64,000 bases of DNA from the NCBI GenBank assembly GCA_031414595.1, contig JANNVX010000032.1, forward strand, positions 6,947-70,946, given 5' to 3'. Of this stretch, positions 3,091 through 63,882 are shown piece by piece. The notes below the pieces were generated by a model that saw only the letters and a list, made by a program, of their open reading frames with translations, did not search any database and had not been told where the DNA came from. The position numbers and the translations under genes are program-made. The stretch is from Deinococcales bacterium. Its GTDB lineage: Bacteria; Deinococcota; Deinococci; Deinococcales; JAAFIG01. Each line of letters opens with the position of its first letter. The first letter of the stretch is position 1.

Positions 3091-3633
3091 ATGCGATTTC
3101 TTTTTTTAATCCTAATGCTTTTCGGCTTCTCGAGTTTCACGCTGGCGCAGGATTTCTCGAGCAGCGCGGCATTGAACAGTCTAGCGGCTGTTTCGCAAAC
3201 AATCTCAAGGCTTGACCCACCTGTTTTAATGGCTCGAGATTGGGTCTTTGGCGGTTTAGAAGCTGGTTTTGCTGGTCGCACCGTCTCAACGCGCTTACTG
3301 CTTTGGTCGTTGCCGTGGATGGGCGCAAGTATCCTTGGTTTAACCCTAACCACCGATGACAAAGCCAAGGGGTTTTGGAGCATGAGCGGCGCTTGGGGAT
3401 TTATCAATAGTGCGATTGCAATGATTGGTTTTCTGACCCCAGAATCAGACCTCGAGAGCTTACGGAATTTACTGCTGATTAACGCTGGTGTAGATGTGCT
3501 GTACATCGCGGCGGGTGCGTACATGTTGTCTCGAGCCGAAGCCTATTGGCAGGGAGCAGGTTGGGGCGTGATTTTACAAGGTACTTTTTTATTGGTTTTT
3601 GATTTATGGCAGGGTTTGGCAATTCGGTTTTGA
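3091..3633 (+). CDS. hypothetical membrane protein
   Basis: Signal-like N-terminus and several hydrophobic helices. 180 aa. Confidence 0.4.
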   Translation: MRFLFLILMLFGFSSFTLAQDFSSSAALNSLAAVSQTISRLDPPVLMARDWVFGGLEAGFAGRTVSTRLLLWSLPWMGASILGLTLTTDDKAKGFWSMSGAWGFINSAIAMIGFLTPESDLESLRNLLLINAGVDVLYIAAGAYMLSRAEAYWQGAGWGVILQGTFLLVFDLWQGLAIRF

Positions 3634-10174: not shown

Positions 10175-10477
10175 ATGAAAGGAAGCACTTGGCTATTTAC
10201 CCTCGCCTCATTTGTTGGTGGCATCCTTGTCTTTTCAAGTGGCTACAACCAAGTGTTGCGCTACCTCGAGCAGCCGACTTGGACGGGCTTAGCGATGATT
10301 GCTTTTTGGTTGACTTTGCTGCTGTTTTTTGTGGTTACACTGGGGTTTATTATGTATGCCGTAGACCGCAAAGCTGGCAATGTACGGGTCAAAATCGCGT
10401 TATTTGAACGTTTACTGGGTTATTCTAAAGAGGCTGTTTTGCCAGAATCTCGAGAAAAAAATAAGGAGAATTCATGA
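10175..10477 (+). CDS. small membrane protein (2 TM)
   Basis: Hydrophobic 100-aa ORF with an SD. Lies within the coupled operon. Confidence 0.4.
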   Translation: MKGSTWLFTLASFVGGILVFSSGYNQVLRYLEQPTWTGLAMIAFWLTLLLFFVVTLGFIMYAVDRKAGNVRVKIALFERLLGYSKEAVLPESREKNKENS

Positions 10478-10845
10478 AGACAATCATCGCCATACTGCTG
10501 GTTTTAGGGGCGCTCGGACTTGCGCCTTTGACCATTGGGGCGTTCGCTCACGCCAATCCAGATTTTGGAACAGTTGATAAAACCTTATCTTCCGAAAATC
10601 CATACATTGTTCGTGAGGATGGAGCGCCAAAAATTCCAGAGCTTGCGGTGAGCTTGGTTAAAATTATTCGAGATACCGAAGGGGCGATTTCTGGGGCGTT
10701 GCTGCCAAACCTAAAATCCTTCCCATTTGAACGTGGCTTTGCGTATATGGGCTTAACTGTACTGCTGACTGCGATTGCTTCGGCACTGCTTGCCGATACG
10801 CGCAGTCAAACCCTCGTTAAACCTGGCAAGAGGAGGCTGGCATAA
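10474..10845 (+). CDS. exported protein (signal peptide)
   Basis: ATGA overlap with the upstream gene. Cleavable-looking N-terminus. Confidence 0.4.
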   Translation: MKTIIAILLVLGALGLAPLTIGAFAHANPDFGTVDKTLSSENPYIVREDGAPKIPELAVSLVKIIRDTEGAISGALLPNLKSFPFERGFAYMGLTVLLTAIASALLADTRSQTLVKPGKRRLA

Positions 10846-16692: not shown

Positions 16693-17634
16693 TTATAACC
16701 ACGTTTGCATTTGCTTAGGTGTTAAGTTCCCACCACAAATAATCGTGGCAACTCGAGAACCAATAAATTGCGCCCGATGCTCGAGCAGTGCTGCAATACC
16801 CACCGCCCCAGACGGTTCTACCACCAAACCAAGGTGTTGATGCAGTAATTTCATTGCCTCGAGAATACTGGAATCCGAGACCAGCAAGCCATCATCCACA
16901 ATGCCGTTCATGTCTTGTACTGCCTCGAGAATCGGTTCGCGTACCCCAATCCCGTCAGCAATTGTGTTTACGCTGTCAAACCGCACAACCTTCCCAGCCC
17001 GCCAAGACTCGAGCATACTTGGCGCACCAGCCGCACAGATTGCCACCACTTTTGCCCTCGAGTTGGCTTTGATGTACCGTGCAACACCGTTTAAGAGCGC
17101 TCCGTTACCCAATGGAATCAACACCGCATCAAAATCTAAGCCACGCAGCATCTCGAGTCCGATTGTTCCCGCCCCTTCGGAAATCAGTGGCTCGAGACCA
17201 TCTTCAACCATATAGGCATTGTTTTTGATTGCCCAGCGTTTTGCCTCGAGTTTAGCGGCATCAAAATCCTCACCATACAAAATGACAGTTGCACCCAATG
17301 CCCGCATTCGCTCGAGTTTTAGCGGATTGGCATTAACACTGGCAAAAACCGTTAAATCAATACCCTTAGCACGGCAAGCATATGCCATTGCCTGACCAAA
17401 ATTCCCAGCACTGCCGCAGACCAGTTTTGCACTTTTCTCGAGACTCGAGATAAAATGACTTGCACCACGACCCTTAAAGCTGCGAACCGGATTGAGCGTC
17501 TCGATTTTGACCGTAACTCGAGTACCCAGTGCAGCATTTAGGGCTTCGGATTCGTATTGCGGGCTGTTTAGAAATTCGGCTGGAATGGTGAGCATGGCAT
17601 TTTCTATCGACTCGAGACTTAAACGATGTTTCAT
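16693..17634 (-). CDS. PLP-dependent threonine/serine dehydratase-family enzyme
   Basis: Start trimmed to MKHRL. PLP-lysine motif SFKGRGA. Confidence 0.7.
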   Translation of the reverse strand: MKHRLSLESIENAMLTIPAEFLNSPQYESEALNAALGTRVTVKIETLNPVRSFKGRGASHFISSLEKSAKLVCGSAGNFGQAMAYACRAKGIDLTVFASVNANPLKLERMRALGATVILYGEDFDAAKLEAKRWAIKNNAYMVEDGLEPLISEGAGTIGLEMLRGLDFDAVLIPLGNGALLNGVARYIKANSRAKVVAICAAGAPSMLESWRAGKVVRFDSVNTIADGIGVREPILEAVQDMNGIVDDGLLVSDSSILEAMKLLHQHLGLVVEPSGAVGIAALLEHRAQFIGSRVATIICGGNLTPKQMQTWL

Positions 17635-17658
17635 TGATAACTCCTTTATACTGAACCT

Positions 17659-17940
17659 ATGAACCTCGAGCAAATACAGCAGATTGCTGCCCGAAATCGT
17701 GTCCAACGACTCGAAATTTTTGGTTCGGCATCTCGAGGTGAAACTGCCAACGACTTTGATTTTTTGGTGCAATTTCAACCGATGCCTGTCCTTGAGCATG
17801 GTCGGGCATATTTTGCGTTGCTTGAGGAATTACGTCTGGCTTTGAATAAACCGATTGATTTACTTGAGGAAAACGCGATTGAAAATCTATTTTTTCTAAA
17901 AAGTATCGCCGCCGATAGAAAAGAGATTTATGTCGCTTGA
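17659..17940 (+). CDS. mntA: MNT-type nucleotidyltransferase antitoxin
   Basis: GSxxRGE...DxD minimal nucleotidyltransferase motif (FGSASRGETANDFDFLV). Confidence 0.7.
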   Translation: MNLEQIQQIAARNRVQRLEIFGSASRGETANDFDFLVQFQPMPVLEHGRAYFALLEELRLALNKPIDLLEENAIENLFFLKSIAADRKEIYVA

Positions 17941-18265
17941 AGCCCAAATATACGCGGCTGATATTCTCAAAGCCATTGGTTTGATTGAACGATTTACCAA
18001 GAACTTTGAGTATGAGGCGTATTGCTTGGATGTCTTGCGAATTTCGGCGGTTGAGCGTCAACTGGGTATTATTGGTGAAGCTGTGACACAAATGGTTAAA
18101 CTCAATTCGAGTTTTTCGGTTCGCAATGCAAAACAAATTATTGGGTTTCGTAATATTTTGATTCATAATTATGCTCGAGTTAGCCAAGCTGTGATTTGGA
18201 CAATTGTCATAGATGAATTACCCGTCCTAAAAATTGAATGCGAAGCAATAGTTGAATTAACCTAA
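17930..18265 (+). CDS. hepT: HepT/DUF86 toxin
   Basis: Overlaps the MNT gene. HepT R-x4-HxY-like motif (RNILIHNY). Confidence 0.7.
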   Translation: MSLEAQIYAADILKAIGLIERFTKNFEYEAYCLDVLRISAVERQLGIIGEAVTQMVKLNSSFSVRNAKQIIGFRNILIHNYARVSQAVIWTIVIDELPVLKIECEAIVELT

Positions 18266-19380
18266 GTACAGAACTCCTTGATGGTTTCAAACAAATTGTT
18301 GGTTAATGTTTCCAAACTGGTTAAGTCCACCCATTCGGTTTTGGCATGAGCGCCGTCGCCTATCACACCGTACATGACTGTATCTATACCAGCCGCTTGC
18401 ATCAGCGCGGCATCTGCCCAGTAGCTTGCACCAGAAATTTTTGCACCAGTTTTGCATTGCAGAATCTCGAGGATAACAGCGTCTGGCGGAGTCGCGAGCG
18501 GGTGGCGCTCGAGACCAATTTGATAACTGGCTTTGAAGGTCGGGTCAGCCGCACGGCAGGTCTCGAGGATTGCCTGAATTTCGTTTTGTAGGGTTGCCGC
18601 GTTTTCATTTGGAATGGTGCGCCGTTCAAGCTCGAGGACACACTGCGCGGGGTAACTCGAGCGCTCCTCTCCTCCACTGATATGGCTGGCATGAAGGCTT
18701 CCAGTGCCTAGAAGTGGATGCGGTGAATCTAAACGCAATTGTGTATCTAACTTCTCGAGTTCGATTAAAACCCGTCCCATTTTGGCAATCGCATCCACCC
18801 CCAAATGTGGTCTCGAGCCGTGCGCCGCTACACCGTGGGTGGTGATGGTTGCCCAAACAAAACCTTTGTGGGCGGTGACAATCTCAAGTTCGGTAGGTTC
18901 GATCACGATTCCAGCATCGGCAGTAAAGTGCCGCAACACTTCTTCTGTGCCAATACTCGAGTCTTCTTCATCGCTTACACAGGCAACAATAATATCGCCA
19001 CGCAGTCCAAGTTTTTTGGCTCGAGAAGCCGCAATCAGCATGGCAGCAACGCCGCTTTTCATGTCGTAACTACCACGCCCGAACATTTTGCCGTTTTCAA
19101 CTCGAGGCTCGAGCGCGTTGCCTTCGTAACCCGCAATCGTCACAGTATCCAAATGCCCATTGAGCATCAGGCTACGCCCACCACCCGTGCCTTTGGCAAC
19201 ACCAACCACACTTGGGCGACCTGCCGTGTCCTCGAGCCAATGGGTGGTAAAGCCGTTTTGCTCGAGCCAGTGCTGCACGAATTTAGCAATGTTCGTTTCG
19301 CCAGCCCCGCCAGTCACTAAACTAGGATTGACGCTGTTAATAACAATCAGTTGCTCGAGAAGTTTTTGGGAGTCGGTCAT
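18262..19380 (-). CDS. M20 family metallopeptidase (ArgE/DapE-like)
   Basis: GHLDTV and GRGSYDMKSG motifs. Start trimmed to MTDSQKL. Confidence 0.75.
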   Translation of the reverse strand: MTDSQKLLEQLIVINSVNPSLVTGGAGETNIAKFVQHWLEQNGFTTHWLEDTAGRPSVVGVAKGTGGGRSLMLNGHLDTVTIAGYEGNALEPRVENGKMFGRGSYDMKSGVAAMLIAASRAKKLGLRGDIIVACVSDEEDSSIGTEEVLRHFTADAGIVIEPTELEIVTAHKGFVWATITTHGVAAHGSRPHLGVDAIAKMGRVLIELEKLDTQLRLDSPHPLLGTGSLHASHISGGEERSSYPAQCVLELERRTIPNENAATLQNEIQAILETCRAADPTFKASYQIGLERHPLATPPDAVILEILQCKTGAKISGASYWADAALMQAAGIDTVMYGVIGDGAHAKTEWVDLTSLETLTNNLFETIKEFCT

Positions 19381-19595
19381 ATTGGTATGTAATATACTAC
19401 TTGAAGAAACTTGGGTTTGCAAGTCGTATCTATGCTTATTTTTAATTACTGATCGTAAAAAATTTGTGCTAGGCTCGAGTTATAGCGGGAGTCGCAATTT
19501 CTTTCAGTCGTAAAAATCTGGAGGCGGTGCTGTTATTCTCGCCAATTATTTATAGCCATGAATCATCAGTAAATTGCGATTCATACCGCTTTAGA

Positions 19596-19631
19596 CGCAT
19601 ATTTAAGCCAAGGTTGTGACTCGAGTATAAT
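19596..19631 (+). promoter_or_regulatory. candidate sigma70 promoter (TTTAAG-18 nt-TATAAT)
   Basis: Perfect -10 hexamer at 19626-19631, about 60 nt upstream of the small ORF. The -35 element is weak. Confidence 0.3.
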
Positions 19632-19689
19632 TTTTAACCGCGATGTTTTCTTGAAAATACATCTGCTCACACTCAGCCAAAGGAGTCGC

Positions 19690-19830
19690 ATGAAAGACAG
19701 TCATAAAGACCAGAAAATTCCGTATCAAACTCCAAAACTCGAGGGGTTAGGCGTATTTGTGGCGCTCATCGGTGGTTCACCGATTCGTGTGCCAATTCAA
19801 CTCGAAGTGCCAGTAAAAGGAGAAAAATAA
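19690..19830 (+). CDS. 46-aa small protein, translationally coupled to the downstream lipoprotein
   Basis: SD AAAGGAG. ORF MKDSHKDQKIPYQTPKLEGLGVFVALIGGSPIRVPIQLEVPVKGEK. Its stop overlaps the next start (TAATG). Confidence 0.35.
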   Translation: MKDSHKDQKIPYQTPKLEGLGVFVALIGGSPIRVPIQLEVPVKGEK

Positions 19831-21725
19831 TGAAAAACCCCATAAATTACCTAGCAACTGCCTTTGTTGCCGCCATTGCCTTAGCCGCCTGTACGCAAAC
19901 CAGTCCTCAACCACAACAAGTTCTCGGGCTGATGCGAATTGGTTTTCAAGTTGACTCAAGCGGTGTAAGTTCAAACGCCAAATTGCAACCACAAACCCTG
20001 ACAGGCACAGCCAGTGGAATCCAAATGAAGTTAATTAACACCAGTACCTTCACGACTGGCACAAGGGGTTCTGGCGGTGAGCGCTGGGTCAGTGCAACCT
20101 ATGACATTCGCAACGCCACCACTGGCGGCACAGCCTATACAAGCGCCAACAGCAACATCAGTTTTCTGGCGGTTAGCACGGCAACCAGTCTTGGTGAAAG
20201 TGCGATTGCCGATATGAAAAGTTACGGCGGCACACTTTTGACCACGCCAGCCTTGGCGCAGTCGTTTAAGCCCACCCACGGAATGCGCTACAACGCCCTA
20301 GGCAACACAGTCGAAACCAGTTCTGGGGCAGAGGATTTTCAGGTCTTTGATGAATCTGAAGTCTCGAGCTTTGCCACGGCGGGTGTTGTCCCCATCAATT
20401 ATGGTTTTGTGGTCAGGCGCACCAGTGCTAACCCGACAAGCCGCACCTTAGCTGCCAACCCAAGCACCAATTTATTCGAGGGGCGGGTCACATTGGCGGT
20501 GCGTTTTCCATTGCAAGCCACCATCTCGGATGACCCATTTACCTTTTCAATGGACTTTTTGGTGGTCACAGACGACCAGACCAGAGTCACCCAAAGTCTC
20601 GAGCAACAAGCCCTCAACAGCCTTCCAAGTCAGACAGCCCAATTGACGGGGGCAGTGGTCAATACCCTACCCGGCTCGACCGACACTACCGCGACCAACC
20701 GTTTTGTTCCAAGTGTGCGTTTGGCACGGGCGGTGGGTGCGCCAACTGCGATTTATTTAGTTCAAGCACCAACAACCATTAACGTCTCGAGTAACGCCGA
20801 CAGTGGCGCTGGAACACTACGCAGTGCGATTCAAAACATTGCTTCTGGAGGCACAATCAACCTAAATAGCATTAACGGTCAGAACATCACGCTTTTAAGT
20901 ACCTTGGTGATTGGTAAAAGCCTGACAATCACCAATACCAACGCCACACCAACGGCGGCTGTACTGGGTGGGGCAACTGCTTTTAACAGCAGCAATGTGC
21001 GTGTTTTTAACATTCAAAGCGGCAATACTGTAACCCTAAGCAACTTCACCATCGGTAATGGTTATGTTTCTGGCAGTTCTGCACAAGGGGCGGCAATTCT
21101 AAACGCTGCTACACTGACATTAAGCAACATCAGGGTACAAAATAATCAAGCCCAAGGTGGTGTGGGTAGCAATGGCACGCCTGGTTTTAATGGGGGTCAA
21201 GATGGTGGGGTCGGAGGCGCGGCGCAAGGCGGCGCAATCTATAATTCTGGCGCATTAACAATTAACTCGATCAGCCTGTTTAGTGGTAATAGGGCGATTG
21301 GTGGTATCGGTGGTTCAGGCGCGGCTGGGTCTCAGGTGAATAGTTTTCCCAATGGTCTGGGCGGACTGGGCGGAACTGCCCAAGGCGGAGCGATTTTTAA
21401 TGCCAGCACTGCTACACTGAGCATCAATACTGTCACCTTTAACACCAATAATGCCACGGGTGGACAAGGCGGAGCGCCGGGTAATGCACTGGGTGGTTCA
21501 GGTCAACAAACTTATGGCAAAGGTGGTTCTGGTGGAAACGCCAACGGCGGCGCAGCTTTCAATGCCAACGCTACGGCTGGTTCTGCCACAGCCGTGACTG
21601 TGACTTACGGAACAGTCGCCAATGCCAATACGGTTATTGGTGGGCTTGCTGTGCAAGGTGGAACACCACTTGGGACAAATAATGGAACAAATGGAACAAC
21701 CAGCAGTCCGAATGCAAATTTCTAA
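19830..21725 (+). CDS. lipoprotein with PMP-like parallel beta-helix repeats (GGAI/FxxN) and Gly-rich tail
   Basis: Lipobox LAAC. Repeated GGAI(Y/F)N and FNxN motifs. GGxGG tracts. Confidence 0.6.
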   Translation: MKNPINYLATAFVAAIALAACTQTSPQPQQVLGLMRIGFQVDSSGVSSNAKLQPQTLTGTASGIQMKLINTSTFTTGTRGSGGERWVSATYDIRNATTGGTAYTSANSNISFLAVSTATSLGESAIADMKSYGGTLLTTPALAQSFKPTHGMRYNALGNTVETSSGAEDFQVFDESEVSSFATAGVVPINYGFVVRRTSANPTSRTLAANPSTNLFEGRVTLAVRFPLQATISDDPFTFSMDFLVVTDDQTRVTQSLEQQALNSLPSQTAQLTGAVVNTLPGSTDTTATNRFVPSVRLARAVGAPTAIYLVQAPTTINVSSNADSGAGTLRSAIQNIASGGTINLNSINGQNITLLSTLVIGKSLTITNTNATPTAAVLGGATAFNSSNVRVFNIQSGNTVTLSNFTIGNGYVSGSSAQGAAILNAATLTLSNIRVQNNQAQGGVGSNGTPGFNGGQDGGVGGAAQGGAIYNSGALTINSISLFSGNRAIGGIGGSGAAGSQVNSFPNGLGGLGGTAQGGAIFNASTATLSINTVTFNTNNATGGQGGAPGNALGGSGQQTYGKGGSGGNANGGAAFNANATAGSATAVTVTYGTVANANTVIGGLAVQGGTPLGTNNGTNGTTSSPNANF

Positions 21726-21734
21726 GTAACCAAA

Positions 21735-21770
21735 AAAAGCACCGCCTCATACTCGAGGGTGGTGCTTTTG
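21735..21770 (+). terminator. rho-independent terminator
   Basis: AGCACCGCC...GGTGGTGCT stem followed by TTTTG. Confidence 0.5.
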
Positions 21771-21816
21771 GCTGCTCGAGCGCACCATTTAGAAAAACTT
21801 TGGCTATACTCTATTT

Positions 21817-24549
21817 ATGACCCCAGAAGAACGCGCCAGATTCCGCATAGACCAACAACTGCTGGCATCTGGTTGGGTTCTACAAAACAAAGATGAGTTT
21901 AATCGCACGGCTGCTTTTGGGGTGGCGGTGCGTGAATTTGCCTTGTTAAACGGCGAAGCTGATTATTTGCTGTTTGTGGATGGTAAAGCCATTGGGGTTC
22001 TCGAGGCAAAACCAGTTGGCACGACCCTTTCTGGGGTGGCAGAACAAACCAAGAAATACCTCGAAGGAGTACCGCCGCACCTCGCCAAACACAGTGCCAA
22101 TTTGCCTTTTGGCTTTGAAAGTACAGGACAAGAAACGTTTTTAATAGATACCCGAGACCCGAATGCCCGTTCAAGGCGAATTTTTCAAATCCACCGCCCA
22201 GAAACCCTGCTCGAGTGGGTGCGGCAGCCAACGACCTTACGAACCCGTTTAAGCCAGTTACCAAGCGTAGACAAAAACGGTTTGCGCTTATGCCAAATAG
22301 AGGCAGTTGGCGGACTCGAGCAGAGTTTAAGCCAGAATAAACCCCGCGCTTTAATTCAGATGGCAACCGGCAGCGGCAAAACCTTTACTGCCGTGACCAG
22401 CAGTTACCGCTTGATAAAACAGGCTGGCGCAAAACGAATTTTGTTCTTGGTAGACCGCAACAATTTAGCCAAACAAACCCTCGCCGAATTCCAGCAATAC
22501 ACCACCCCAGACGATGGGCGCAAATTTAGTGAACTCTACAATGTCCAGATGCTACAAGGTAAACGCCTAGACCCTGTAGCCAAAGTAGTGATTGGCACAA
22601 TCCAGCGCCTTTTTAGTATGCTTAAAGGCGAAGAGATAGACGATGAACTCGATAACAAAAGCCTGCATGAACTGGGGATTAAAGACCAAAAACCCAAAGA
22701 AGTGATGTATAACCCCGAGATTCCGATAGATTCTTTTGATTTTATTATTATTGACGAATGCCACCGCAGCATTTATAACCTCTGGCGTGGGGTTCTCGAG
22801 TATTTTGATGGGTTTTTGATTGGTTTAACCGCCACCCCAAGTAAACAAACGATTGGCTTTTTTAACCAGAACCTTGTGACCGAATACGCCTACAGCCAAG
22901 CCGTCAAAGATAATGTCAATGTGGATTACGATGTCTACCGCATTAAAACCCAAATTGGCGAATTTGGGGCAACCATCGAACAAGGCGAATACATTGATAA
23001 ACGCGACCGCCAAACCCGCCGTAAACGCTGGGAGGCACTGGACAATGACCTTGAATACACAGGCAAAGAACTTGACCGCAGCGTTGTAGCGGTCAGCCAA
23101 ATCCGCACCGTGATTCGCACCTACAAAGAAAAACTGCTCGAGATTTTCCCAGAGCGCAGCCATACCCCAAAAACCCTGATATTTGCTAAAACCGATAGCC
23201 ATGCCGAAGATATTGTTGAAATTGTGCGTGAAGAATTTGGCAAAGGCAATGATTTTTGTAAAAAAATAACCTACCGCACAACCGAAGACCCCGAAACGTT
23301 GATCAAAGAATTTCGCAACAATTATTATCCACGAATTGCCGTGACCGTAGACATGATTAGCACTGGCACAGACATTAAACCACTCGAGGTGCTGCTGTTT
23401 ATGCGCGATGTTGCCAGCGCTGTCTACTTTGAACAAATGAAGGGACGCGCCACCCGCACCATCCATCCAGACGAACTCAAAGCCGTCACCCCAGATGCCA
23501 AACACAAAACCCATTTTGTGCTGGTGGACGCAGTGGGCGTAACCGAAACAATCAAAACCGATTCTAAACCACTCGAGCGCTTACCGAGTATTCCCTTTGC
23601 CAAAATCCTGCAAAAAATTGCCATGGGCGACACCAGCTTAGAAACCATCTCGAGTTTAGCCAGCCGTTTAACCCGACTTGATAAAAAACTAAGCGAAACC
23701 AGCCGCGATGCACTGGAAGTCCACGCCAAAAAAGACCTCAAAACCGTTGTTGCAAACCTCATTCGCGCCACCGACCCAGACAGCATCGAAGCCCACGCCA
23801 TAACCCAAACGGGCAACCCCAACCCAAGCGATTTGCAATACGACCAAGCCCAATCTGACTTAGCCGAAAATGCCGCCCAGCCATTTAATAACCCAGAATT
23901 CAGGCGTTTACTCGAGGACATCCAACGCGATAGCGAACAAACCATAGACACCGTCACCCAAGACCAAGTGCTGTATGTCGGCTACGATTTTGACAAAGCC
24001 AGACGGATGGTACAAACATGGCAAGACTTTATCGAACAACACAAAAACGAACTGACGGCACTGCAAATTATTTACAACCAACCCAAGCAACAACAAAAAC
24101 TGACCTTTGCCGCAATCCAACAACTTGCCAGCGCCATCGAGCAGCCACCGTACTATTTAACCCCAGAAAATGTTTGGAAAGCCTACGAAAACCTCGAGCA
24201 AACCCGAGTGAAAAGCAGCCACAACCCGCAGCGCCTCCTAACCGACCTTGTAGCCTTGGTGCGCTTTACAACTGGGCAAGACACGATGCTAACACCATTT
24301 ATGGACACCGTACAACACCGTTTTCAGACATGGCTAAGTCTGCAACAATCGAGCGGCACAGCTTTTAGTACAGAACAACTCGAGTGGCTAGGCATGATCC
24401 GAGACCACATTGCCAGCAGTGCTGCGATTGAGATTCAAGACCTCGAACTCAGCCCGTTTCACCAACGCGGTGGGGCATACAAAGCCGTACAATTATTTAA
24501 GAACATCAGACCACTGCTCGAGGAACTCAACACGACCCTGAGTGCATAA
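21817..24549 (+). CDS. hsdR: type I restriction enzyme R subunit
   Basis: Walker A TGSGKTFT. DEAH-box DECHRS. Helicase C motifs. 910 aa. Confidence 0.85.
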   Translation: MTPEERARFRIDQQLLASGWVLQNKDEFNRTAAFGVAVREFALLNGEADYLLFVDGKAIGVLEAKPVGTTLSGVAEQTKKYLEGVPPHLAKHSANLPFGFESTGQETFLIDTRDPNARSRRIFQIHRPETLLEWVRQPTTLRTRLSQLPSVDKNGLRLCQIEAVGGLEQSLSQNKPRALIQMATGSGKTFTAVTSSYRLIKQAGAKRILFLVDRNNLAKQTLAEFQQYTTPDDGRKFSELYNVQMLQGKRLDPVAKVVIGTIQRLFSMLKGEEIDDELDNKSLHELGIKDQKPKEVMYNPEIPIDSFDFIIIDECHRSIYNLWRGVLEYFDGFLIGLTATPSKQTIGFFNQNLVTEYAYSQAVKDNVNVDYDVYRIKTQIGEFGATIEQGEYIDKRDRQTRRKRWEALDNDLEYTGKELDRSVVAVSQIRTVIRTYKEKLLEIFPERSHTPKTLIFAKTDSHAEDIVEIVREEFGKGNDFCKKITYRTTEDPETLIKEFRNNYYPRIAVTVDMISTGTDIKPLEVLLFMRDVASAVYFEQMKGRATRTIHPDELKAVTPDAKHKTHFVLVDAVGVTETIKTDSKPLERLPSIPFAKILQKIAMGDTSLETISSLASRLTRLDKKLSETSRDALEVHAKKDLKTVVANLIRATDPDSIEAHAITQTGNPNPSDLQYDQAQSDLAENAAQPFNNPEFRRLLEDIQRDSEQTIDTVTQDQVLYVGYDFDKARRMVQTWQDFIEQHKNELTALQIIYNQPKQQQKLTFAAIQQLASAIEQPPYYLTPENVWKAYENLEQTRVKSSHNPQRLLTDLVALVRFTTGQDTMLTPFMDTVQHRFQTWLSLQQSSGTAFSTEQLEWLGMIRDHIASSAAIEIQDLELSPFHQRGGAYKAVQLFKNIRPLLEELNTTLSA

Positions 24550-24564
24550 GGGTAGAATACCGTC

Positions 24565-24852
24565 ATGGATACCCAAGCCATACAGCAGATTCTAGGGCAA
24601 CACCAAGCCGAACTTCGGGCGTTTGGTGTGCGCGAACTGCTTTTGTTTGGCAGCACTGCCCGAGGCGAAGCCACGCCGCAAAGCGACCTAGATTTTTTGG
24701 TCGAACTCGAGCGATACACACTAACCGATTTTATGGGCTTAAAATTTGCACTCGAAGAATGGTTTGGTCAAAAAATAGATTTAGGGACTCGAGCCAGCCT
24801 AAAACCGATACTGAGCGCCGAAGTCGAAAAGGACTTACGCCGTGTCGCGTAA
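24565..24852 (+). CDS. mntA: MNT-type nucleotidyltransferase antitoxin (second copy)
   Basis: FGSTARGEATPQSDLDFLV motif. Confidence 0.7.
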   Translation: MDTQAIQQILGQHQAELRAFGVRELLLFGSTARGEATPQSDLDFLVELERYTLTDFMGLKFALEEWFGQKIDLGTRASLKPILSAEVEKDLRRVA

Positions 24853-25192
24853 ACTAGAATTGTATTTAATCGATATTCTCGAGGCAATAGCGCGATTAAA
24901 GTTATTTACCAAAGGCTTTGACCAAGAAGCCTACCTGAATTCGTTGCTGGTACGAGATGCGAGCTTTCGCAATTTTATGGTTATTGGCGAGGCAGTTAAG
25001 CAAATTTCCGATGAATCTCGAGCTAAACACCCAACAGTACCTTGGAAATCTATTGCGGGTTTACGAGATTTATTAGCCCATGAGTATTTTAGAACCGATG
25101 ATCGAATTTTATGGAATGTAATTGAAAAAGAACTAGACCCACTCAAAGAAGCAGTCTTGGCACTTCTAGCAGCAAGCAAGGCTGACCGATGA
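24842..25192 (+). CDS. hepT: HepT/DUF86 toxin (second copy)
   Basis: GTG start overlapping the MNT gene. RDLLAHEY motif. Confidence 0.7.
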   Translation: MSRKLELYLIDILEAIARLKLFTKGFDQEAYLNSLLVRDASFRNFMVIGEAVKQISDESRAKHPTVPWKSIAGLRDLLAHEYFRTDDRILWNVIEKELDPLKEAVLALLAASKADR

Positions 25193-26727
25193 CCCTAACC
25201 AAAACGCAACCCGATTTTTTTGCAGTTCTGACAGGCGCACAAGCCACAGCTGCCCCCGCGTTGCAGGAGTTACCAATGAACTGGGAATGGGCAAAACTCG
25301 AGGATGTTTATAAAATTGTTGGTGGTGGAACTCCTGCAACTGCAAATCAAGAGTTTTGGAATGGAGATATTCCGTGGATCACCAGTGCTGATATTACTGA
25401 TTCTGGCGAAATAAATCCCAGAAAGTTCATTACAGAGATTGGTGTAAAAAATTCACCAATTAACATTATTCCCGAGGGCGCAATTGTCATTGCTACTCGA
25501 GTGAGTTTGGGTAAGATTGCAATTGCACCAACAAAACTTACTTTCAGTCAAGATTGCCAAGGATTGTTGGCAGAAATTCAAGTTCTCGAGCCAGCTTTTG
25601 CATTGCATTTTTTAGCAACAGAAGCAAAAAAGTTTCAGTACATTAGTCGTGGTACTACGATTTCGGGAATTACAAAAAAACAGCTTTCAGAACTGAATGT
25701 GCGTGTCCCGCCGCTTCTCGAGCAGAAACGAATTGTGGCTAAACTCGAGGAATTACTATCCGAACTCGAGTTTGGGGTCAAAACCCTAAAAATTGCTTTG
25801 GCAAAAGTCAAAAAATACCGTCAGAGTGTGCTTAAAGCTGCCGTTCAAGGCGATTTATCCAAGGCGTGGCGTGAAGCCCAAGGCGGTTCGCTCGAGCCAG
25901 CCAGTGTGTTGTTAAAAAAAGTCTTACTCGAGCGCCAACAAAAATGGATTCTCGAGCAGCAAGCCAAGGGCAGGAAAAATGCGAAGTACACCGAGCCACA
26001 AGCCCCAGACTCGAGCGGTTTGGCGGAATTACCAGAAGGTTGGGTCTGGACAACAGCAGGATATATTTGTGACTGTATTGTTCCAAATCGTGATAAGCCT
26101 CAATCTTTTACAGGCGACATACCTTGGATTACGATTCCAGATTTTGATTCAAGTAACCTACATATTTCCAAGGCTAAATCTGGTTTAGGTTTAACTCGAG
26201 AAGAAGTTGAGAAATATCGAGCAAGATTGATTCCAGTAAACAGCGTCATTATGACTTGTGTGGGTCGTTTTGGAATAGCAGCAACCACTAAACAAGAATG
26301 CGTAATCAATCAGCAACTTCACGCTTTTCTATTTGTTCCTGAGTTGATTCCTGAGTATTTGACAATTGTTTTAATAACTCAAAAATCCTACATGGATAAG
26401 AAGGCAAACGCGACAACAATTGCTTACTTAAATAAGGAAAGTTGTAACAGCGTTCCTCTCCCTCTTCCCCCGCTCGAGGAACAAGCCTTTATTGTCTCCC
26501 AAGTCGAAGCGAAACTATCTGCCACCGACCATCTCGAGAACAGCATCAAAGCCAATTTGCTACGGGCGGAACGCTTGCGGGCAAGTACGCTCAATATGGC
26601 GTTTCGTGGTGAGCTTGTCGCCCAAGACGCAACGGATGAACCGGCGGCGGTACTGCTCGAGCGGATACGCGGTTTGCGGGCAGAGGCGGGACGTAAGAAG
26701 TTGCCTAAAAAATCATCTAGCCCTTAA
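25189..26727 (+). CDS. hsdS: type I R-M specificity subunit
   Basis: Two AT-rich target-recognition domains separated by conserved helical spacers (LPPLLEQKRI / LPLPPLEEQ). Confidence 0.8.
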   Translation: MTLTKTQPDFFAVLTGAQATAAPALQELPMNWEWAKLEDVYKIVGGGTPATANQEFWNGDIPWITSADITDSGEINPRKFITEIGVKNSPINIIPEGAIVIATRVSLGKIAIAPTKLTFSQDCQGLLAEIQVLEPAFALHFLATEAKKFQYISRGTTISGITKKQLSELNVRVPPLLEQKRIVAKLEELLSELEFGVKTLKIALAKVKKYRQSVLKAAVQGDLSKAWREAQGGSLEPASVLLKKVLLERQQKWILEQQAKGRKNAKYTEPQAPDSSGLAELPEGWVWTTAGYICDCIVPNRDKPQSFTGDIPWITIPDFDSSNLHISKAKSGLGLTREEVEKYRARLIPVNSVIMTCVGRFGIAATTKQECVINQQLHAFLFVPELIPEYLTIVLITQKSYMDKKANATTIAYLNKESCNSVPLPLPPLEEQAFIVSQVEAKLSATDHLENSIKANLLRAERLRASTLNMAFRGELVAQDATDEPAAVLLERIRGLRAEAGRKKLPKKSSSP

Positions 26728-26743
26728 TCAGCTATAATTTCGT

Positions 26744-26983
26744 ATGCTTCAGACTTTGTTTACAGTGGGTGACGGCACGGCGGTAATTATTCTAGCCGAT
26801 TTACTCAAGCGGTACGGCTTAAAAGCTGGGGATTTGGTCAATTTGCTCAGTACCGAAGCAGGAATTGCAATTGTACCAGAAACGGGTTTAGACCCAAGTT
26901 TTGAAAATGCCTTACGCACCATTTCGAGAGAACGCCATGAATTGTTTCAACGCCTTACTGACTTTGATACACAAAAACCATGA
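26744..26983 (+). CDS. small AbrB/SpoVT-like protein
   Basis: 79 aa. A swapped-hairpin-like VGDGTAVIIL...GLKAGDLV segment. Embedded between hsdS and hsdM. Confidence 0.35.
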   Translation: MLQTLFTVGDGTAVIILADLLKRYGLKAGDLVNLLSTEAGIAIVPETGLDPSFENALRTISRERHELFQRLTDFDTQKP

Positions 26984-27026
26984 GGTTCGTTGCATTTTGG
27001 CTCGAGTCTCGGGTTAGCATGGGCGC

Positions 27027-28496
27027 ATGAGTTCAGCTTCGGCATTGGTTTCTAAAGTTTGGAGTCTCGCCCATGTATTGCGGGACGATGGTGTCAGTTA
27101 CGGCGATTACCTCGAGCAGATTACGCTTTTGGTGTTTCTAAAAATGGCGCAAGAAGATTTTGAATTGACTTCTGGTTTTGTGGATTTGCCAGTGCGAACC
27201 ACCAATCCCGAAGTGCTTTCTTGGTCGGAGTTGCGCTCAAAAAGTGGTGTGGCACTCGAGAACTATTACCGTTATGTGCTGACCACTTTAAGTACCCATA
27301 CGGGTTTACTCGGGGTTATTTTTCGTAAAGCCCAAAACAAAATTCAAGACCCCGCCAAACTCGAGCGGGTGATTAAACTTATCGATGGTGAGGTTTGGCG
27401 GGCATTGGATGTTGATGTCAAAGGCGAAATCTATGAGGGTTTACTCGAGCGCAACGCCAAGGATATTAAAAGCGGAGCGGGGCAGTATTTTACGCCGCGC
27501 CCTTTAATAGATGCGATGGTACTGGTCTGCCGTCCGCAATTGGGGTACAAAATCGCTGACCCCGCCTGTGGTACGGCTGGTTTTTTGATTGCGGCGCATC
27601 AGTTTATTTTGAACAGCAAACAAAACCTCAATGCCGAACAGCGCCGAGTTTTGCGCGAAGAAATGTTTTTTGGGGTGGACATTGTGGATAGCGTGGTGCG
27701 TTTGGCGGCGATGAATATGTATTTGCATGGCATCGGTGGCGAAGCCGAATCGTTGGTGCGTGCCGATGATTCATTGCGTTCTAAACCGAGTACCTTGGTG
27801 GATTTGGTGTTGACCAATCCGCCTTTTGGTAAAAAAAGCAGCATCCGAATTATCAACGAAGAAGGCGACGAGGAACGCGAAGCCCTGACCTACTCGAGGG
27901 ATGATTTTTGGGCAACCACCAGCAATAAACAACTTAATTTTGTACAACACATTGTCAATATGCTTAAAATTGGTGGCTTGGCGGCGGTGGTGCTGCCAGA
28001 CAATGTGTTATTCGAGGGCGGCACGGGCGAAACAATTCGTAAGAATCTCTTAAAAACCTGCGATGTCCATACATTGCTGCGGCTTCCAACTGGGATTTTT
28101 TATGCCCAAGGGGTCAAAGCCAATGTTTTGTTCTTTGAGCGCAAGGCTGGCTCAGACACCGCCCAAACACAGCAACTTTGGGTCTACGATTTACGCACCA
28201 ATCAGCATTTCACCTTAAAAGAAAATCCGCTTTTACCCAAGCACCTGACCGACTTTATCGCTTGTTACAACCCAGAAAACCGCTTTGAACGTTTTGAAAC
28301 CGAGCGCTTTAAGGCATTTAGCTACACCGATTTAATGGCAAGGGACAAAGCCAACTTGGATATTTTTTGGCTGCGAGATGAATCGCTCGAGGAATCCGAT
28401 AACTTACCCGCCCCAAGTATTCTAGCCCAAGAAATCATGGATGATTTAGAAAGTGCCATGACCGCTTTTAGCAATGTGGCTGAATCGCTAAATTAA
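27027..28496 (+). CDS. hsdM: type I R-M N6-adenine DNA methyltransferase
   Basis: HsdM N-terminal domain. SAM motif DPACGTAGF. Catalytic NPPF. Confidence 0.85.
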   Translation: MSSASALVSKVWSLAHVLRDDGVSYGDYLEQITLLVFLKMAQEDFELTSGFVDLPVRTTNPEVLSWSELRSKSGVALENYYRYVLTTLSTHTGLLGVIFRKAQNKIQDPAKLERVIKLIDGEVWRALDVDVKGEIYEGLLERNAKDIKSGAGQYFTPRPLIDAMVLVCRPQLGYKIADPACGTAGFLIAAHQFILNSKQNLNAEQRRVLREEMFFGVDIVDSVVRLAAMNMYLHGIGGEAESLVRADDSLRSKPSTLVDLVLTNPPFGKKSSIRIINEEGDEEREALTYSRDDFWATTSNKQLNFVQHIVNMLKIGGLAAVVLPDNVLFEGGTGETIRKNLLKTCDVHTLLRLPTGIFYAQGVKANVLFFERKAGSDTAQTQQLWVYDLRTNQHFTLKENPLLPKHLTDFIACYNPENRFERFETERFKAFSYTDLMARDKANLDIFWLRDESLEESDNLPAPSILAQEIMDDLESAMTAFSNVAESLN

Positions 28497-28550
28497 CCAC
28501 TTCTCGAGCCACCACAAAACCGCGTATAATCGCAGAATGCAAACAGTTTT

Positions 28551-28934
28551 GTGGAGGAAGACGTGAAAGGCACAATCAACGTCACAGAAAATGCCCTCGC
28601 CAGTTTACTTGGTCTAGCGGCGCATGAAGTTCCGGGTGTGGTTGGTATGGCACCGGCAAACCTCAAAGAAGGGATTCAAAAAATTCTTGGACAACCACAG
28701 TCTCGAGATGGCGTGGTCGTGGCTGGCGAAGGCACAACCCGTACTTGCGAAATCTTTGTGGTGGTGGCGTTTGGTACAGCCATTCATGCTGTGGCAGAAA
28801 ATGTCAAAGACCGTATTGTGCATACCGCCAAAGCCCTTGCTGGGATTGAACTCTCGAGTGTGCGGGTGCATGTGGTCGGGGTGGCTAAACCGGGTGCAAA
28901 TAACGTGAAGAAAAAAGGGGCGCGAGGTGGATAA
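28551..28934 (+). CDS. Asp23/Gls24 family protein
   Basis: Typical alkaline-shock-protein N-terminus. Paired with a DAK2 gene. Confidence 0.7.
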   Translation: MEEDVKGTINVTENALASLLGLAAHEVPGVVGMAPANLKEGIQKILGQPQSRDGVVVAGEGTTRTCEIFVVVAFGTAIHAVAENVKDRIVHTAKALAGIELSSVRVHVVGVAKPGANNVKKKGARGG

Positions 28935-34165: not shown

Positions 34166-34239
34166 AGTGATTTATGGGAGTCGAACCCATTACCGTCAGT
34201 TTACAAGACTGATGCTCTAACCAGTTGAGCTAAAACCTT
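34166..34239 (-). tRNA. tRNA-Thr(UGU)-like; acceptor stem does not pair as read
   Basis: D-arm GCTCAACTGGTTAGAGC. Anticodon loop CUUGUAA. T-arm ATGGGTTCGACTCCCAT. 5' AAGGTTT against 3' AAATCAC gives only 3 bp. Confidence 0.4.
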
Positions 34240-34241
34240 GG

Positions 34242-34327
34242 TAAAAGATGCAGGATTTGAACCTGCTTGCCCTTGCGGGCGCTCGTTTTTCAGACGAGTG
34301 CGTTTATCCAGTATCCGCCAATCTTTT
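34242..34327 (-). tRNA. type II (long variable arm, Leu-like body) tRNA with apparent GAA anticodon
   Basis: Acceptor AAAAGAT/ATCTTTT. D-arm TGGCGGA...CGC. Anticodon arm CTCGT-CUGAAAA-ACGAG. Variable hairpin GCCCGCAAGGGC. T-arm GCAGGTTCAAATCCTGC. Followed by ACCA. Confidence 0.5.
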
Positions 34328-34330
34328 TTT

Positions 34331-34405
34331 GGTGAAAGGAATCGAACCTCTGACCTCTCGAGTGGTTTACCCATCCCAAGCGCTCTGCCCATCTAAGCTA
34401 CACCG
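34331..34405 (-). tRNA. tRNA-like element; anticodon arm unresolved
   Basis: Canonical T-arm GGTTCGATTCC and D-arm GCTT-AGATGGGCA-GAGC. Only a 4-bp acceptor (GGTG/CACC). The 3' end abuts the next tRNA. Confidence 0.3.
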
Positions 34406-63308: not shown

Positions 63309-63542
63309 ATGAACACGGTACGCCTCGAGCCTGAACTCAAAGCCAAAATCCAGAAACTCGCCCAATTACAAAATATCACCCAATCAGAATTACAACGCCG
63401 AGCGCTTGAATTGTATGTTGAACAAACAGCAGTTGTACAAAGCCGATTCGAGGATATGTTCGGTGTAGCTAGTGGTTCAGCAGAATTATCTGAACACGTC
63501 AAAGAAGAATTTGCCTTACTGATGGCACAAAAACATGACTGA
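63309..63542 (+). CDS. ribbon-helix-helix type antitoxin (VapB/ParD-like)
   Basis: 77 aa with an N-terminal RHH-like segment. Overlaps the PIN gene. Confidence 0.45.
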   Translation: MNTVRLEPELKAKIQKLAQLQNITQSELQRRALELYVEQTAVVQSRFEDMFGVASGSAELSEHVKEEFALLMAQKHD

Positions 63543-63882
63543 AATTCTGATTGATACAGGACCAATTTTAGCGGCGCTGAATCGGCAAGACAAACACCAT
63601 CTTTTTGCCGTAGAAACCATGCGTCAATACAATCAGCCTTTTTTGACGACTGTCGCAGTAATGACTGAAGTCATGTACCTGACGCAACAACGACTCGGTT
63701 GGTACGCTGCCGAAAAATTACTAGAAATTGTCAACCGTGGTGATATTATTGTACAGCACATTGGTCTTGCCGATTTTCAAAGAATTTCTGTACTGATGAA
63801 AAAATACCTTGATTTACCAATGGATTTTGCTGATGCAACCCTTGTGGCACTGGCAGAACGCTTAGGATTTGTCCCAGAATAA
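63535..63882 (+). CDS. vapC: PIN-domain toxin (VapC-like)
   Basis: N-terminal ILIDTGPILA with a conserved Asp. Acidic residues downstream. 115 aa. Confidence 0.6.
   Translation: MTEILIDTGPILAALNRQDKHHLFAVETMRQYNQPFLTTVAVMTEVMYLTQQRLGWYAAEKLLEIVNRGDIIVQHIGLADFQRISVLMKKYLDLPMDFADATLVALAERLGFVPE

Follow-up and report, generated by a model that had tools for sequence, protein, structure and literature searches.

Type I restriction-modification (R-M) systems frequently contain embedded genes, and the PDC candidates of PADLOC were derived from such genes (bioRxiv 10.1101/2024.01.29.577857). Two arrangement classes, RSM and R-SM, have been described for these systems (PMC12255300). An island of enteropathogenic Escherichia coli (EPEC) that has been studied experimentally carries the toxin-antitoxin (TA) pair DarTG2 between hsdS and hsdR, together with a small repressor, RptR (PMC12255303), and the classical HEPN example of an RNase embedded in an R-M system is PrrC in EcoprrI (PMC3632139). 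According to a survey of HEPN proteins, numerous families occur as embedded genes in R-M operons (PMC3710099). That such operons can carry defence cargo is a sound idea in general, and one already known. Here we analyzed a 64,000-nt stretch of the genome of a Deinococcales bacterium (contig JANNVX010000032.1; hereafter the window), in which a Type I R-M operon of the order hsdR-hsdS-hsdM carries a MntA/HepT pair, that is, a minimal nucleotidyltransferase (MNT) antitoxin and a HEPN RNase toxin, at the junction of hsdR and hsdS (R-S junction), and a 79-aa AbrB-like antitoxin with an apparent remnant of its toxin gene at the junction of hsdS and hsdM (S-M junction). We consider it probable that this is a resident R-S-M operon whose junctions serve as docking sites, and that its cargo consists of autonomous, exchangeable TA cassettes, one intact and one decayed.

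In type VII TA systems, the HepT RNase is restrained by MntA through adenylylation of a tyrosine, as established in Shewanella and Aphanizomenon, and the tyrosine of the Rx4HxY motif of HepT is the residue that is adenylylated. The open reading frames (ORFs) of the window were assigned to families by Pfam, PADLOC and NCBIfam profile searches, and motifs were read from the translations. The MntA/HepT module, which lies on the strand of hsdR and hsdS and between them as the initial annotation had stated, proved to be complete, and alignment confirmed the catalytic motifs of both its proteins. Its antitoxin, MNT2, carries GSTARGEATPQSDLD (GSTARG..SDLD) and KIDL, and the antitoxin of a second pair farther upstream (pair 1), MNT1, carries GSASRGETANDFD (GSASRG...NDFD) and PIDL, so that both have the nucleotidyltransferase signature GSx2RG...(S/N)DxD and the third carboxylate. 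MNT2 aligned to the minimal nucleotidyltransferase of PDB 1WOT (2.1e-09), and a PDB sequence search with HepT2 gave no match at E 0.01. Residues R75, H80 and Y82 of the Rx4HxY motif of HepT2 are invariant in an alignment of 10 sequences, and Rx4HxY is found in HepT1 too. Both pairs passed the Pfam family cut-offs; in NCBIfam, MNT2 matched MntA_antitoxin at 5.6e-11 and HepT2 matched HepT_toxin at 7.6e-11, both below cut-off, and pair 1 scored 25.6 and 36 bits against NF047752 and NF047751 (cut-off 60). In both pairs an MNT gene is followed on the same strand by an overlapping hepT gene.

Having characterized the embedded pair, we compared it with pair 1 and with its relatives elsewhere. Pair 1 had been reported 4 kb upstream; it is indeed present, with 3.5 kb between its end and the hsdR start and 6.3 kb between its end and the embedded pair. 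The two pairs are 34% (MNT) and 36% (HepT) identical, which rules out a recent duplication. Apart from identical copies, the closest relatives of HepT2 are 53–59% identical; those in the related loci L106, L107 and L108 (53–56%) lie between the genes of a PALP dehydratase and an M20 peptidase. This PALP-M20 slot, a short gap from the start of the divergent PALP dehydratase gene to the end of the convergent M20 peptidase gene, is orthologous between the window and L106–L108 (window 17634-18265; L106:7686-8351; L107:6049-6714; L108:369-1034) and is filled by MNT/HepT cassettes that differ among relatives. In the window it is occupied by pair 1, which thus sits outside the R-M operon; a 4-nt overlap joins the 3' end of hepT1 to the convergent gene of the M20 peptidase. 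The cassettes of L106–L108 are nearer to the R-M-embedded pair of the window than to pair 1, its slot occupant. Between the window and L106, the flanking PALP and M20 proteins share 60–63% identity, a level similar to that of MNT2 and HepT2 against the L106 cassette. Among 16 more distant metagenomic relatives, many of them on short contigs, none is adjacent to hsd genes. Because the closest relatives of the embedded HepT occupy the PALP-M20 slot, the MntA/HepT cassette appears to move between sites within the lineage and not to be tied to R-M. The initial annotation had held that occurrence of the same pair at random places throughout the genome would speak against a link with R-M; this is so in part, since the nearest relatives of the pair lie in the PALP-M20 slot rather than in R-M. 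An iterated profile search found no MNT/HepT copies in the 64 kb beyond the two pairs. We also observed that L106, a locus of the same lineage, has another Type I R-M system, distinct from that of the window, directly beside the PALP-M20 slot (L106:1-6476). Its genes are arranged M-S-cargo-R, with an HsdR of the HSDR_N type, and its embedded cargo comprises an AAA_15/AAA_21 ATPase and a 212-aa protein without a family.

We then examined the S-M junction. On its own, the 79-aa protein encoded there gave sub-threshold matches to MazE/AbrB (PF04014, E 0.0088) and to doc_partner (TIGR02609, 23.5 bits against a cut-off of 55.9). A large protein search returned three relatives; the homologues carry PF04014 and an AbrB domain, with 34–43 bits to doc_partner and 20–27 bits to the AbrB domain. 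In P0002 (74% identical) and P0003 (67% identical), the homologous gene is followed by a Fic/Doc gene with a 4-nt overlap, and the intact Doc genes of L082 and L083 score above the cut-off of TIGR01550 DOC_P1 and encode HAFLDGNKR or HAFVDGNKR. In the window, no intact Doc gene with the Fic motif HxFx(D/N)(A/G)NKR is adjacent, and only a stub of 16 codons is found. The stub opens with MR as Doc does and ends like the Doc of L082 (…AVWLESRVRLSP before the stop), with the peptide WLESRV common to both, and 20 nt of it are identical to the 3' end of doc in L082. Its stop codon overlaps the hsdM start as ATGA, and its ATG overlaps the antitoxin stop likewise. The same stub and orphan antitoxin are present in L081, whose HsdM is 93% identical (dS 0.27). 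Because the stub joins the N- and C-termini of Doc, and the homologues overlap intact doc genes, a Phd/Doc-type cassette appears to have stood between hsdS and hsdM, from which an in-frame deletion took about 110 codons of doc. By origin, the 79-aa protein would be the antitoxin of this Phd/Doc-type module, its toxin deleted.

Further analyses addressed the fold and the maintenance of the 79-aa protein. Its AlphaFold2 model is of low confidence (predicted local distance difference test score 55), too low for a fold search, and only the order of secondary structures was used, beta-beta-alpha-beta-beta and a C-terminal helix as in an AbrB-fold antitoxin. A profile of the family matched AbrB-family chains in the PDB weakly (E 0.2), and neither Pfam, NCBIfam nor PADLOC gave a helix-turn-helix (HTH) match that would make it an Xre-type C protein. 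The antitoxin gene seems to be maintained under purifying selection, because its dN/dS since the split from L081 is 0.26, an estimate that rests on 17 substitutions, against 0.17 for hsdM. The earlier proposal that the AbrB-like ORF could be a dedicated controller of hsdM does not hold for its origin, since its homologues overlap doc genes and the doc remnant is still visible.

To place the two junctions in context, we scanned species-representative genomes with HsdM and fetched 80 loci (HsdM 55–62% identical) from many bacterial phyla and archaea; ORFs were called in these loci and then searched with the window proteins. The order was R-S-M in 54 of the 55 loci carrying all three genes. The R-first arrangement, with S before M, that had been noted at this locus is therefore the norm of its HsdM/HsdR family and corresponds to the published RSM/R-SM class (PMC12255300). 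All three hsd genes abut or overlap in about a third of the family loci. Inserts of more than 150 nt were found at the R-S junction in 17 of 55 loci and at the S-M junction in 45 of 64, and the inserted ORFs lie overwhelmingly on the operon strand. At the S-M junction, the final cargo gene ends no more than 30 nt from the hsdM start, or overlaps hsdM, in 30 of 43 loci. The apparent ATGA overlaps of R-S cargo with hsdS in other loci proved unreliable and were discarded, the longest-ORF rule overextending hsdS.

The junction proteins were subjected to a Pfam census, which covered 25 proteins of the R-S junction (24 cargo ORFs and the 188-aa ORF L002:2848-3414) and 84 S-M cargo proteins. They include ATPases (AAA_21/AbiEii-like and AAA_15/OLD-TOPRIM), RhuM and Nmad3, Fic/Doc, PIN and HipA-like kinase, reverse transcriptases, Schlafen/AlbA_2 proteins, YhcG-type PD-(D/E)xK nucleases, patatin, PRTase-CE, DUF4411 and Xre-type HTH proteins. 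Judged by these families, the junction cargo consists of diverse defence, abortive-infection and TA genes. The initial annotation had called for a comparison of hsdR-hsdS content across related loci. In that comparison, MNT/HepT lies inside the operon in the window alone, and the other 55 family loci that have an R-S junction all lack it there; in two other family loci, an MNT gene or MNT/HepT pair lies just outside the operon. These results indicate that the R-S and S-M junctions act as docking sites for co-directional accessory genes across the family.

All eight ORFs named in the initial annotation were reproduced, with their identities and coordinates on the plus strand, from the ORF list and the three profile libraries (Table 1). 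HsdR contains the motifs D..EAK, GSGKT, DECH and QMKGRATR of a PD-(D/E)xK nuclease and superfamily 2 helicase/translocase, and a further Pfam match to Helicase_C (1.9e-07). In NCBIfam it matched PRK11448 at 3.8e-112 with 376 bits, under the equivalog cut-off of 729 bits, and restrict_EcoAI with 194 bits, under the cut-off of 550 bits; it is related to the EcoAI/EcoEI (Type IB) families through EcoEI_R_C and is a member of neither equivalog. HsdM carries DPACGTAGF and NPPF (LTNPPFG), the AdoMet-binding and NPPF motifs of a Type I methyltransferase. HsdS has two Methylase_S stretches, as expected for two target recognition domains, and matched PADLOC Specificity_I at 1e-86 over residues 26-509. 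The window thus holds an intact Type I R-M gene set. The conserved core of HsdS begins near residue 28 of the longest ORF, and insert-free family members have just 3–14 residues before that motif; alternative starts are an ATG at 25276, preceded by AGGAG with a 6-nt spacer, and a TTG at 25261. The true start may be one of these rather than 25189. The hepT-hsdS overlap at 25189-25192, noted earlier, is real for the ORF, but it is as uncertain as the hsdS start itself.

Table 1 Features of the R-M operon and of the upstream MNT/HepT pair, with positions in the window.
Feature	Position	Strand	Evidence or remark
mntA-like antitoxin gene, pair 1 (MNT1)	17659..17940	+	Polbeta 2e-07, NTP_transf_2 1.7e-06, PADLOC PDC-S09 8.9e-22
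hepT-like toxin gene, pair 1 (HepT1)	17930..18265	+	PF01934 1e-18; RNILIHNY motif
Candidate terminator (hairpin and T-run)	21739..21769	+	3' of the upstream 631-aa ORF; GCACCGCCTC...GAGGGTGGTGC then TTTT
TATACT -10 box	21805..21810	+	Begins 12 nt 5' of the hsdR ATG; putative leaderless promoter
hsdR, Type I restriction subunit, EcoEI-type C-terminal domain	21817..24549	+	ResIII 2.9e-37, EcoEI_R_C 4.1e-35, PADLOC REase_I 6.5e-54
TAGAAT -10 box	24553..24558	+	Begins 12 nt 5' of the mntA2 ATG; putative leaderless promoter of the cassette
mntA2 (MNT2), nucleotidyltransferase antitoxin, 95 aa, R-S junction	24565..24852	+	NTP_transf_2 9.1e-13, PADLOC PDC-S09 2.1e-25
hepT2, HEPN RNase toxin, 116 aa, R-S junction	24842..25192	+	PF01934 8.2e-27
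hsdS, specificity subunit	25189..26727	+	Methylase_S 2.6e-46; start ambiguous: 25189, 25261 or 25276
TATAAT -10 box	26733..26738	+	Begins 11 nt 5' of the antitoxin ATG; kept in free-standing phd/doc cassettes
Orphan Phd-like (AbrB-fold, doc_partner) antitoxin gene, 79 aa, S-M junction	26744..26983	+	TIGR02609 5.5e-5
Putative doc toxin remnant, 16 codons in frame	26980..27030	+	MRFVAFWLESRVSMGA then stop; ATGA overlaps with the antitoxin stop and the hsdM start
TAGCAT -10-like box	27015..27020	+	Begins 12 nt 5' of the hsdM ATG, within the doc stub; putative
hsdM, N6-adenine methyltransferase subunit	27027..28496	+	N6_Mtase 7.7e-65, HsdM_N 4.6e-12, PADLOC MTase_I 2.4e-185

We next asked how long the operon has resided in this genome. 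The palindrome CTCGAG occurs 340 times in the window, about once per 188 bp, against 7.3 expected from dinucleotide shuffles and 45 for the next commonest 6-bp palindrome. Densities of 5–7.5 per kb were found elsewhere only in L081–L085 and L102–L108, which makes the palindrome a mark of the lineage. Among the plus-strand genes checked, 42 of 60 sites are in codon phase 0 (Leu-Glu). CTCGAG therefore seems to be a lineage-wide, HIP1-like hyper-abundant palindrome; no paper in the library searched pairs it with 'highly iterated palindrome'. Because the hsd and MNT/HepT genes carry CTCGAG at the genome level (4.1–9.1 per kb in hsdR, hsdS, hsdM and the MNT/HepT genes, 5.3 per kb in the whole window), the R-M locus appears to be long resident in the chromosome and not newly acquired from another lineage. 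A search of the locus and its cassettes for flanking repeats, attachment sites, integrase, insertion sequence (IS) or mobility genes yielded only chance or CTCGAG-driven matches. Several 6-bp palindromes (AGGCCT, AGATCT, ACTAGT, ACGCGT, AAGCTT) are wholly absent from the 64 kb, which may reflect restriction-site avoidance. Just upstream of hsdR, a 631-aa ORF (19830-21725) without a Pfam, NCBIfam or PADLOC family encodes Gly/Ala/Thr/Asn-rich repeats and contains a 23-nt repeat family (21084-21565); it may be a more recent acquisition, because its CTCGAG density is unusually low (1.6 against 5.3 per kb).

The transcriptional layout of the operon was explored from its gene starts. A consensus promoter and terminator scan of the locus gave counts no higher than in shuffled sequence, and an analysis of -10 boxes anchored at gene starts was the informative alternative. 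A TANNNT box starting 12 nt before the start codon was found at 11 of 61 window genes, against about one at any other offset; examples are the starts at 3091, 14620, 15146, 21817, 24565, 27027, 41813 and 46003. This peak points to widespread leaderless transcription. A TATACT box likewise begins 12 nt 5' of the mntA1 ATG, and the cassettes of L106–L108 have TACAAT or TAGAAT at the position matching the mntA2 box. At the S-M junction, TAATCAGYTATAAT is kept in the window, L081 and L082; in L083 the two TATAAT boxes are retained and CAG is replaced by TTT. The hairpin at 21739-21769, whose minus-strand version was listed in the terminator scan, probably isolates the R-M operon from the upstream ORF, and the scan revealed no convincing terminator inside the operon. 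Beyond the hsdM stop (28524-28563), a 9-codon mini-ORF begins with an ATG 6 nt after a TATAAT box, and the GTG at 28563, which has GGAGGA before it, is the start of an Asp23-family gene. A putative promoter of its own thus serves the downstream operon, and no terminator is evident after hsdM.

Taken together, these data fit the resident operon with exchangeable cassettes, which we consider probable. Because each unit has a -10 box 5–6 nt before its start codon, the modules hsdR, mntA-hepT, antitoxin-stub and hsdM may be transcribed separately from their own leaderless promoters and, in addition, by read-through. Short gaps and ATGA overlaps would let translation run from the cargo into the hsd genes. 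HepT would cleave RNA once MntA stops adenylylating Tyr82. The cassettes would be autonomous, exchangeable modules that settled in permissive operon junctions and persist through co-inheritance with the R-M genes; they would stabilize the locus and may add an abortive layer of defence. Several points weigh against this interpretation. MNT2 and HepT2 score 42.3 and 41.9 bits, under the NCBIfam equivalog cut-off of 60 bits (NF047752 and NF047751). The promoters are consensus matches only, and the uncertain hsdS start means that translational coupling of hepT and hsdS is not secure. No flanking repeats, integrase or IS accounts for the precise placement of the cassettes, and the lineage yielded no relative whose R-S junction is empty, the insertion being inferred from distant family members. 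The functional steps, finally, are predictions from sequence.

Three other explanations were weighed against the same evidence. As the initial annotation suggested, MntA/HepT could serve the R-M system through abortive-infection back-up or addiction, with the 79-aa protein as a dedicated controller of hsdM; in the integrated form weighed here, failure of restriction would set the toxin free, as happens with PrrC in EcoprrI. For embedded cargo at large, such a role has been proposed in the literature. The single strand, the tight packing, the lack of a terminator between the genes and the match of the MNT to the PADLOC embedded-gene candidate PDC-S09 agree with such integration, as does the recurrence of HEPN toxins in R-M operons, of which PrrC is the proven guarded case (PMC3710099, PMC3632139, bioRxiv 10.1101/2024.01.29.577857); the position of the 79-aa gene, directly upstream of hsdM, also speaks for a controller. 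Yet the closest HepT2 relatives are outside R-M loci, the pair is missing from the R-S junction of all 55 other family loci that have one, and a pair with its own antitoxin and promoter-like box does not need R-M proteins for its control. Our sequence analyses of the locus gave no sign of physical or regulatory coupling of the cassettes to the restriction enzyme of the PrrC kind. The 79-aa protein, for its part, lacks an HTH of the C-protein type and is a Doc antitoxin by homology and context, with a doc remnant beside it. We regard this integrated arrangement as quite unlikely. A second possibility is that the cassettes are selfish and benefit neither the host nor the R-M system, their position being an accident of tolerated insertion. 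That the cassette type moves between unrelated slots, that one of the two embedded cassettes is already toxin-less and that MNT/HepT is rare at the R-S junction of the family speak for such neutral hitch-hiking. It sits less easily with the intact catalytic residues of HepT and MntA, or with junction cargo that belongs mostly to defence and abortive-infection families, in line with the published result that embedded cargo often defends (bioRxiv 10.1101/2024.01.29.577857), and we consider it rather doubtful.

A further explanation concerns the S-M junction alone. After the loss of doc, the antitoxin could repress its own TATAAT promoter at 26733 while the stub hands ribosomes to hsdM, an exaptation that we judge unlikely although several observations are compatible with it. 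Purifying selection on the antitoxin gene has continued since doc was deleted (omega 0.26, compared with 0.17 for HsdM), the in-frame deletion keeps both ATGA overlaps as well as the TAGCAT box that lies 12 nt 5' of hsdM, free-standing cassettes share the conserved promoter region, and DNA-binding antitoxins commonly autoregulate their promoters (PMC12255303). The state has, however, been seen in two lineages only (the window and L081), with omega drawn from the same few substitutions; an orphan antitoxin could equally be kept as a shield from incoming Doc toxins; of the repeated TTATAAT element of L082 and L083, the window has the first half only in degenerate form; and hsdM has a candidate -10 box of its own. 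With little confidence, we suggest that the orphan antitoxin and the stub may form a domesticated unit setting hsdM expression, a TA-derived controller that would resemble C proteins or RptR in role, though not in origin.

The cassette interpretation of this locus, which we prefer, overturns nothing in current understanding, as TA cargo in Type I R-M systems has already been published (DarTG2, PrrC and guilt-by-embedding). It does place two stages in the life cycle of such cargo side by side, one cassette being intact and the other having cleanly lost its toxin but retained its antitoxin and the coupling to hsdM. Should the embedded MntA/HepT protect against phages, type VII TA would join the cargo that backs up Type I restriction. 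With its fixed R-S-M order and junctions filled in about one third (R-S) and two thirds (S-M) of loci, the family offers a checkable example of guilt-by-embedding, and the junction cargo without a family is a pool of candidate defence genes.

Some features elsewhere in the window were also recorded. A DUF3208 protein is encoded at 283-633; taken with the leaderless promoters, it hints at a Deinococcota-like organism, one whose G+C content, 48%, is unusually low. Two overlapping small ORFs (100 and 123 aa) at 10175-10845 have the layout of a TA pair and no Pfam family, and a 115-aa PIN-domain ORF at 63535-63882 (E 1.4e-06) is a possible TA toxin. Structured RNAs were searched for with Rfam, which detected none in the R-M locus and only three tRNAs in the window, at 34.1-34.4 kb; this minus-strand cluster (34166-34404) contains two tRNAs (Thr-TGT and Phe-GAA) according to ARAGORN.

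Finally, we compared the locus with known systems. Like the C proteins of Type II R-M systems, the 79-aa protein is small and encoded just upstream of an R-M gene; C proteins, however, are Xre-type HTH proteins acting on C-boxes, whereas it has a sub-threshold signature of an AbrB/MazE-type fold and TA ancestry. Compared with the Phd/Doc modules that have an AbrB-fold doc_partner (TIGR02609, TIGR01550 DOC_P1), it gives a sub-threshold match to doc_partner, and its homologues overlap intact Doc genes with HAF(L/V)DGNKR. Those modules have a doc gene, whereas in the window doc is cut to 16 codons and the antitoxin, at 23.5 bits against 55.9, is an orphan. The intact cassette resembles type VII MntA/HepT (Shewanella oneidensis SO_3165/SO_3166, PDB 5YEP; NF047752 and NF047751) in having the MNT gene first, an overlapping hepT gene, GSx2RG...DxD and Rx4HxY. 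The characterized examples are not located inside an R-M operon, whereas pair 2 is, and it scores 42 bits against 60. Both MNTs match PDC-S09, one of the PADLOC candidates for which embedded genes of BREX, DISARM and Type I R-M systems were the source; PDC-S09 is a single-gene defence candidate, and HepT is without a PADLOC model.

Among systems embedded in Type I operons, PrrC in EcoprrI hsdMSR (PMC3632139; bioRxiv 10.1101/2024.01.29.577857) likewise places an RNase gene of the HEPN superfamily in the operon and is the textbook abortive back-up. PrrC, however, is a single ABC-ATPase-HEPN fusion silenced by R-M proteins and has no antitoxin gene, whereas the window has a minimal HepT with MntA and a promoter-like box; HepT2 (116 aa) carries PF01934 alone and is preceded by its cognate MNT gene, which separates it from the PrrC/RloC type. 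The RSM and R-SM classes (PMC12255300) share with the window the order hsdR, hsdS, hsdM and the insertion of up to a few genes after hsdR; the survey describes inserts between hsdR and hsdSM, whereas the window and most of the 64 related loci also, or instead, have an insert between hsdS and hsdM. The EPEC island RptR-RMS-DarTG-M48 (PMC12255303) was shown experimentally to defend against phages. The EPEC order is M-S-[TA]-R and that of the window R-[TA]-S-M; the EPEC toxin is a DNA ADP-ribosyltransferase and the window toxin a HEPN RNase. RptR, the product of the first gene of the island, is an alpha-helical repressor, in contrast to the AbrB-fold antitoxin of the window, and the EPEC island is IS-flanked, whereas the window locus has no mobility genes and carries the compositional signature of its host. 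The two loci are alike in having a complete TA pair between hsdS and hsdR, on the same strand, together with a gene for a small DNA-binding protein, a putative one in the window.

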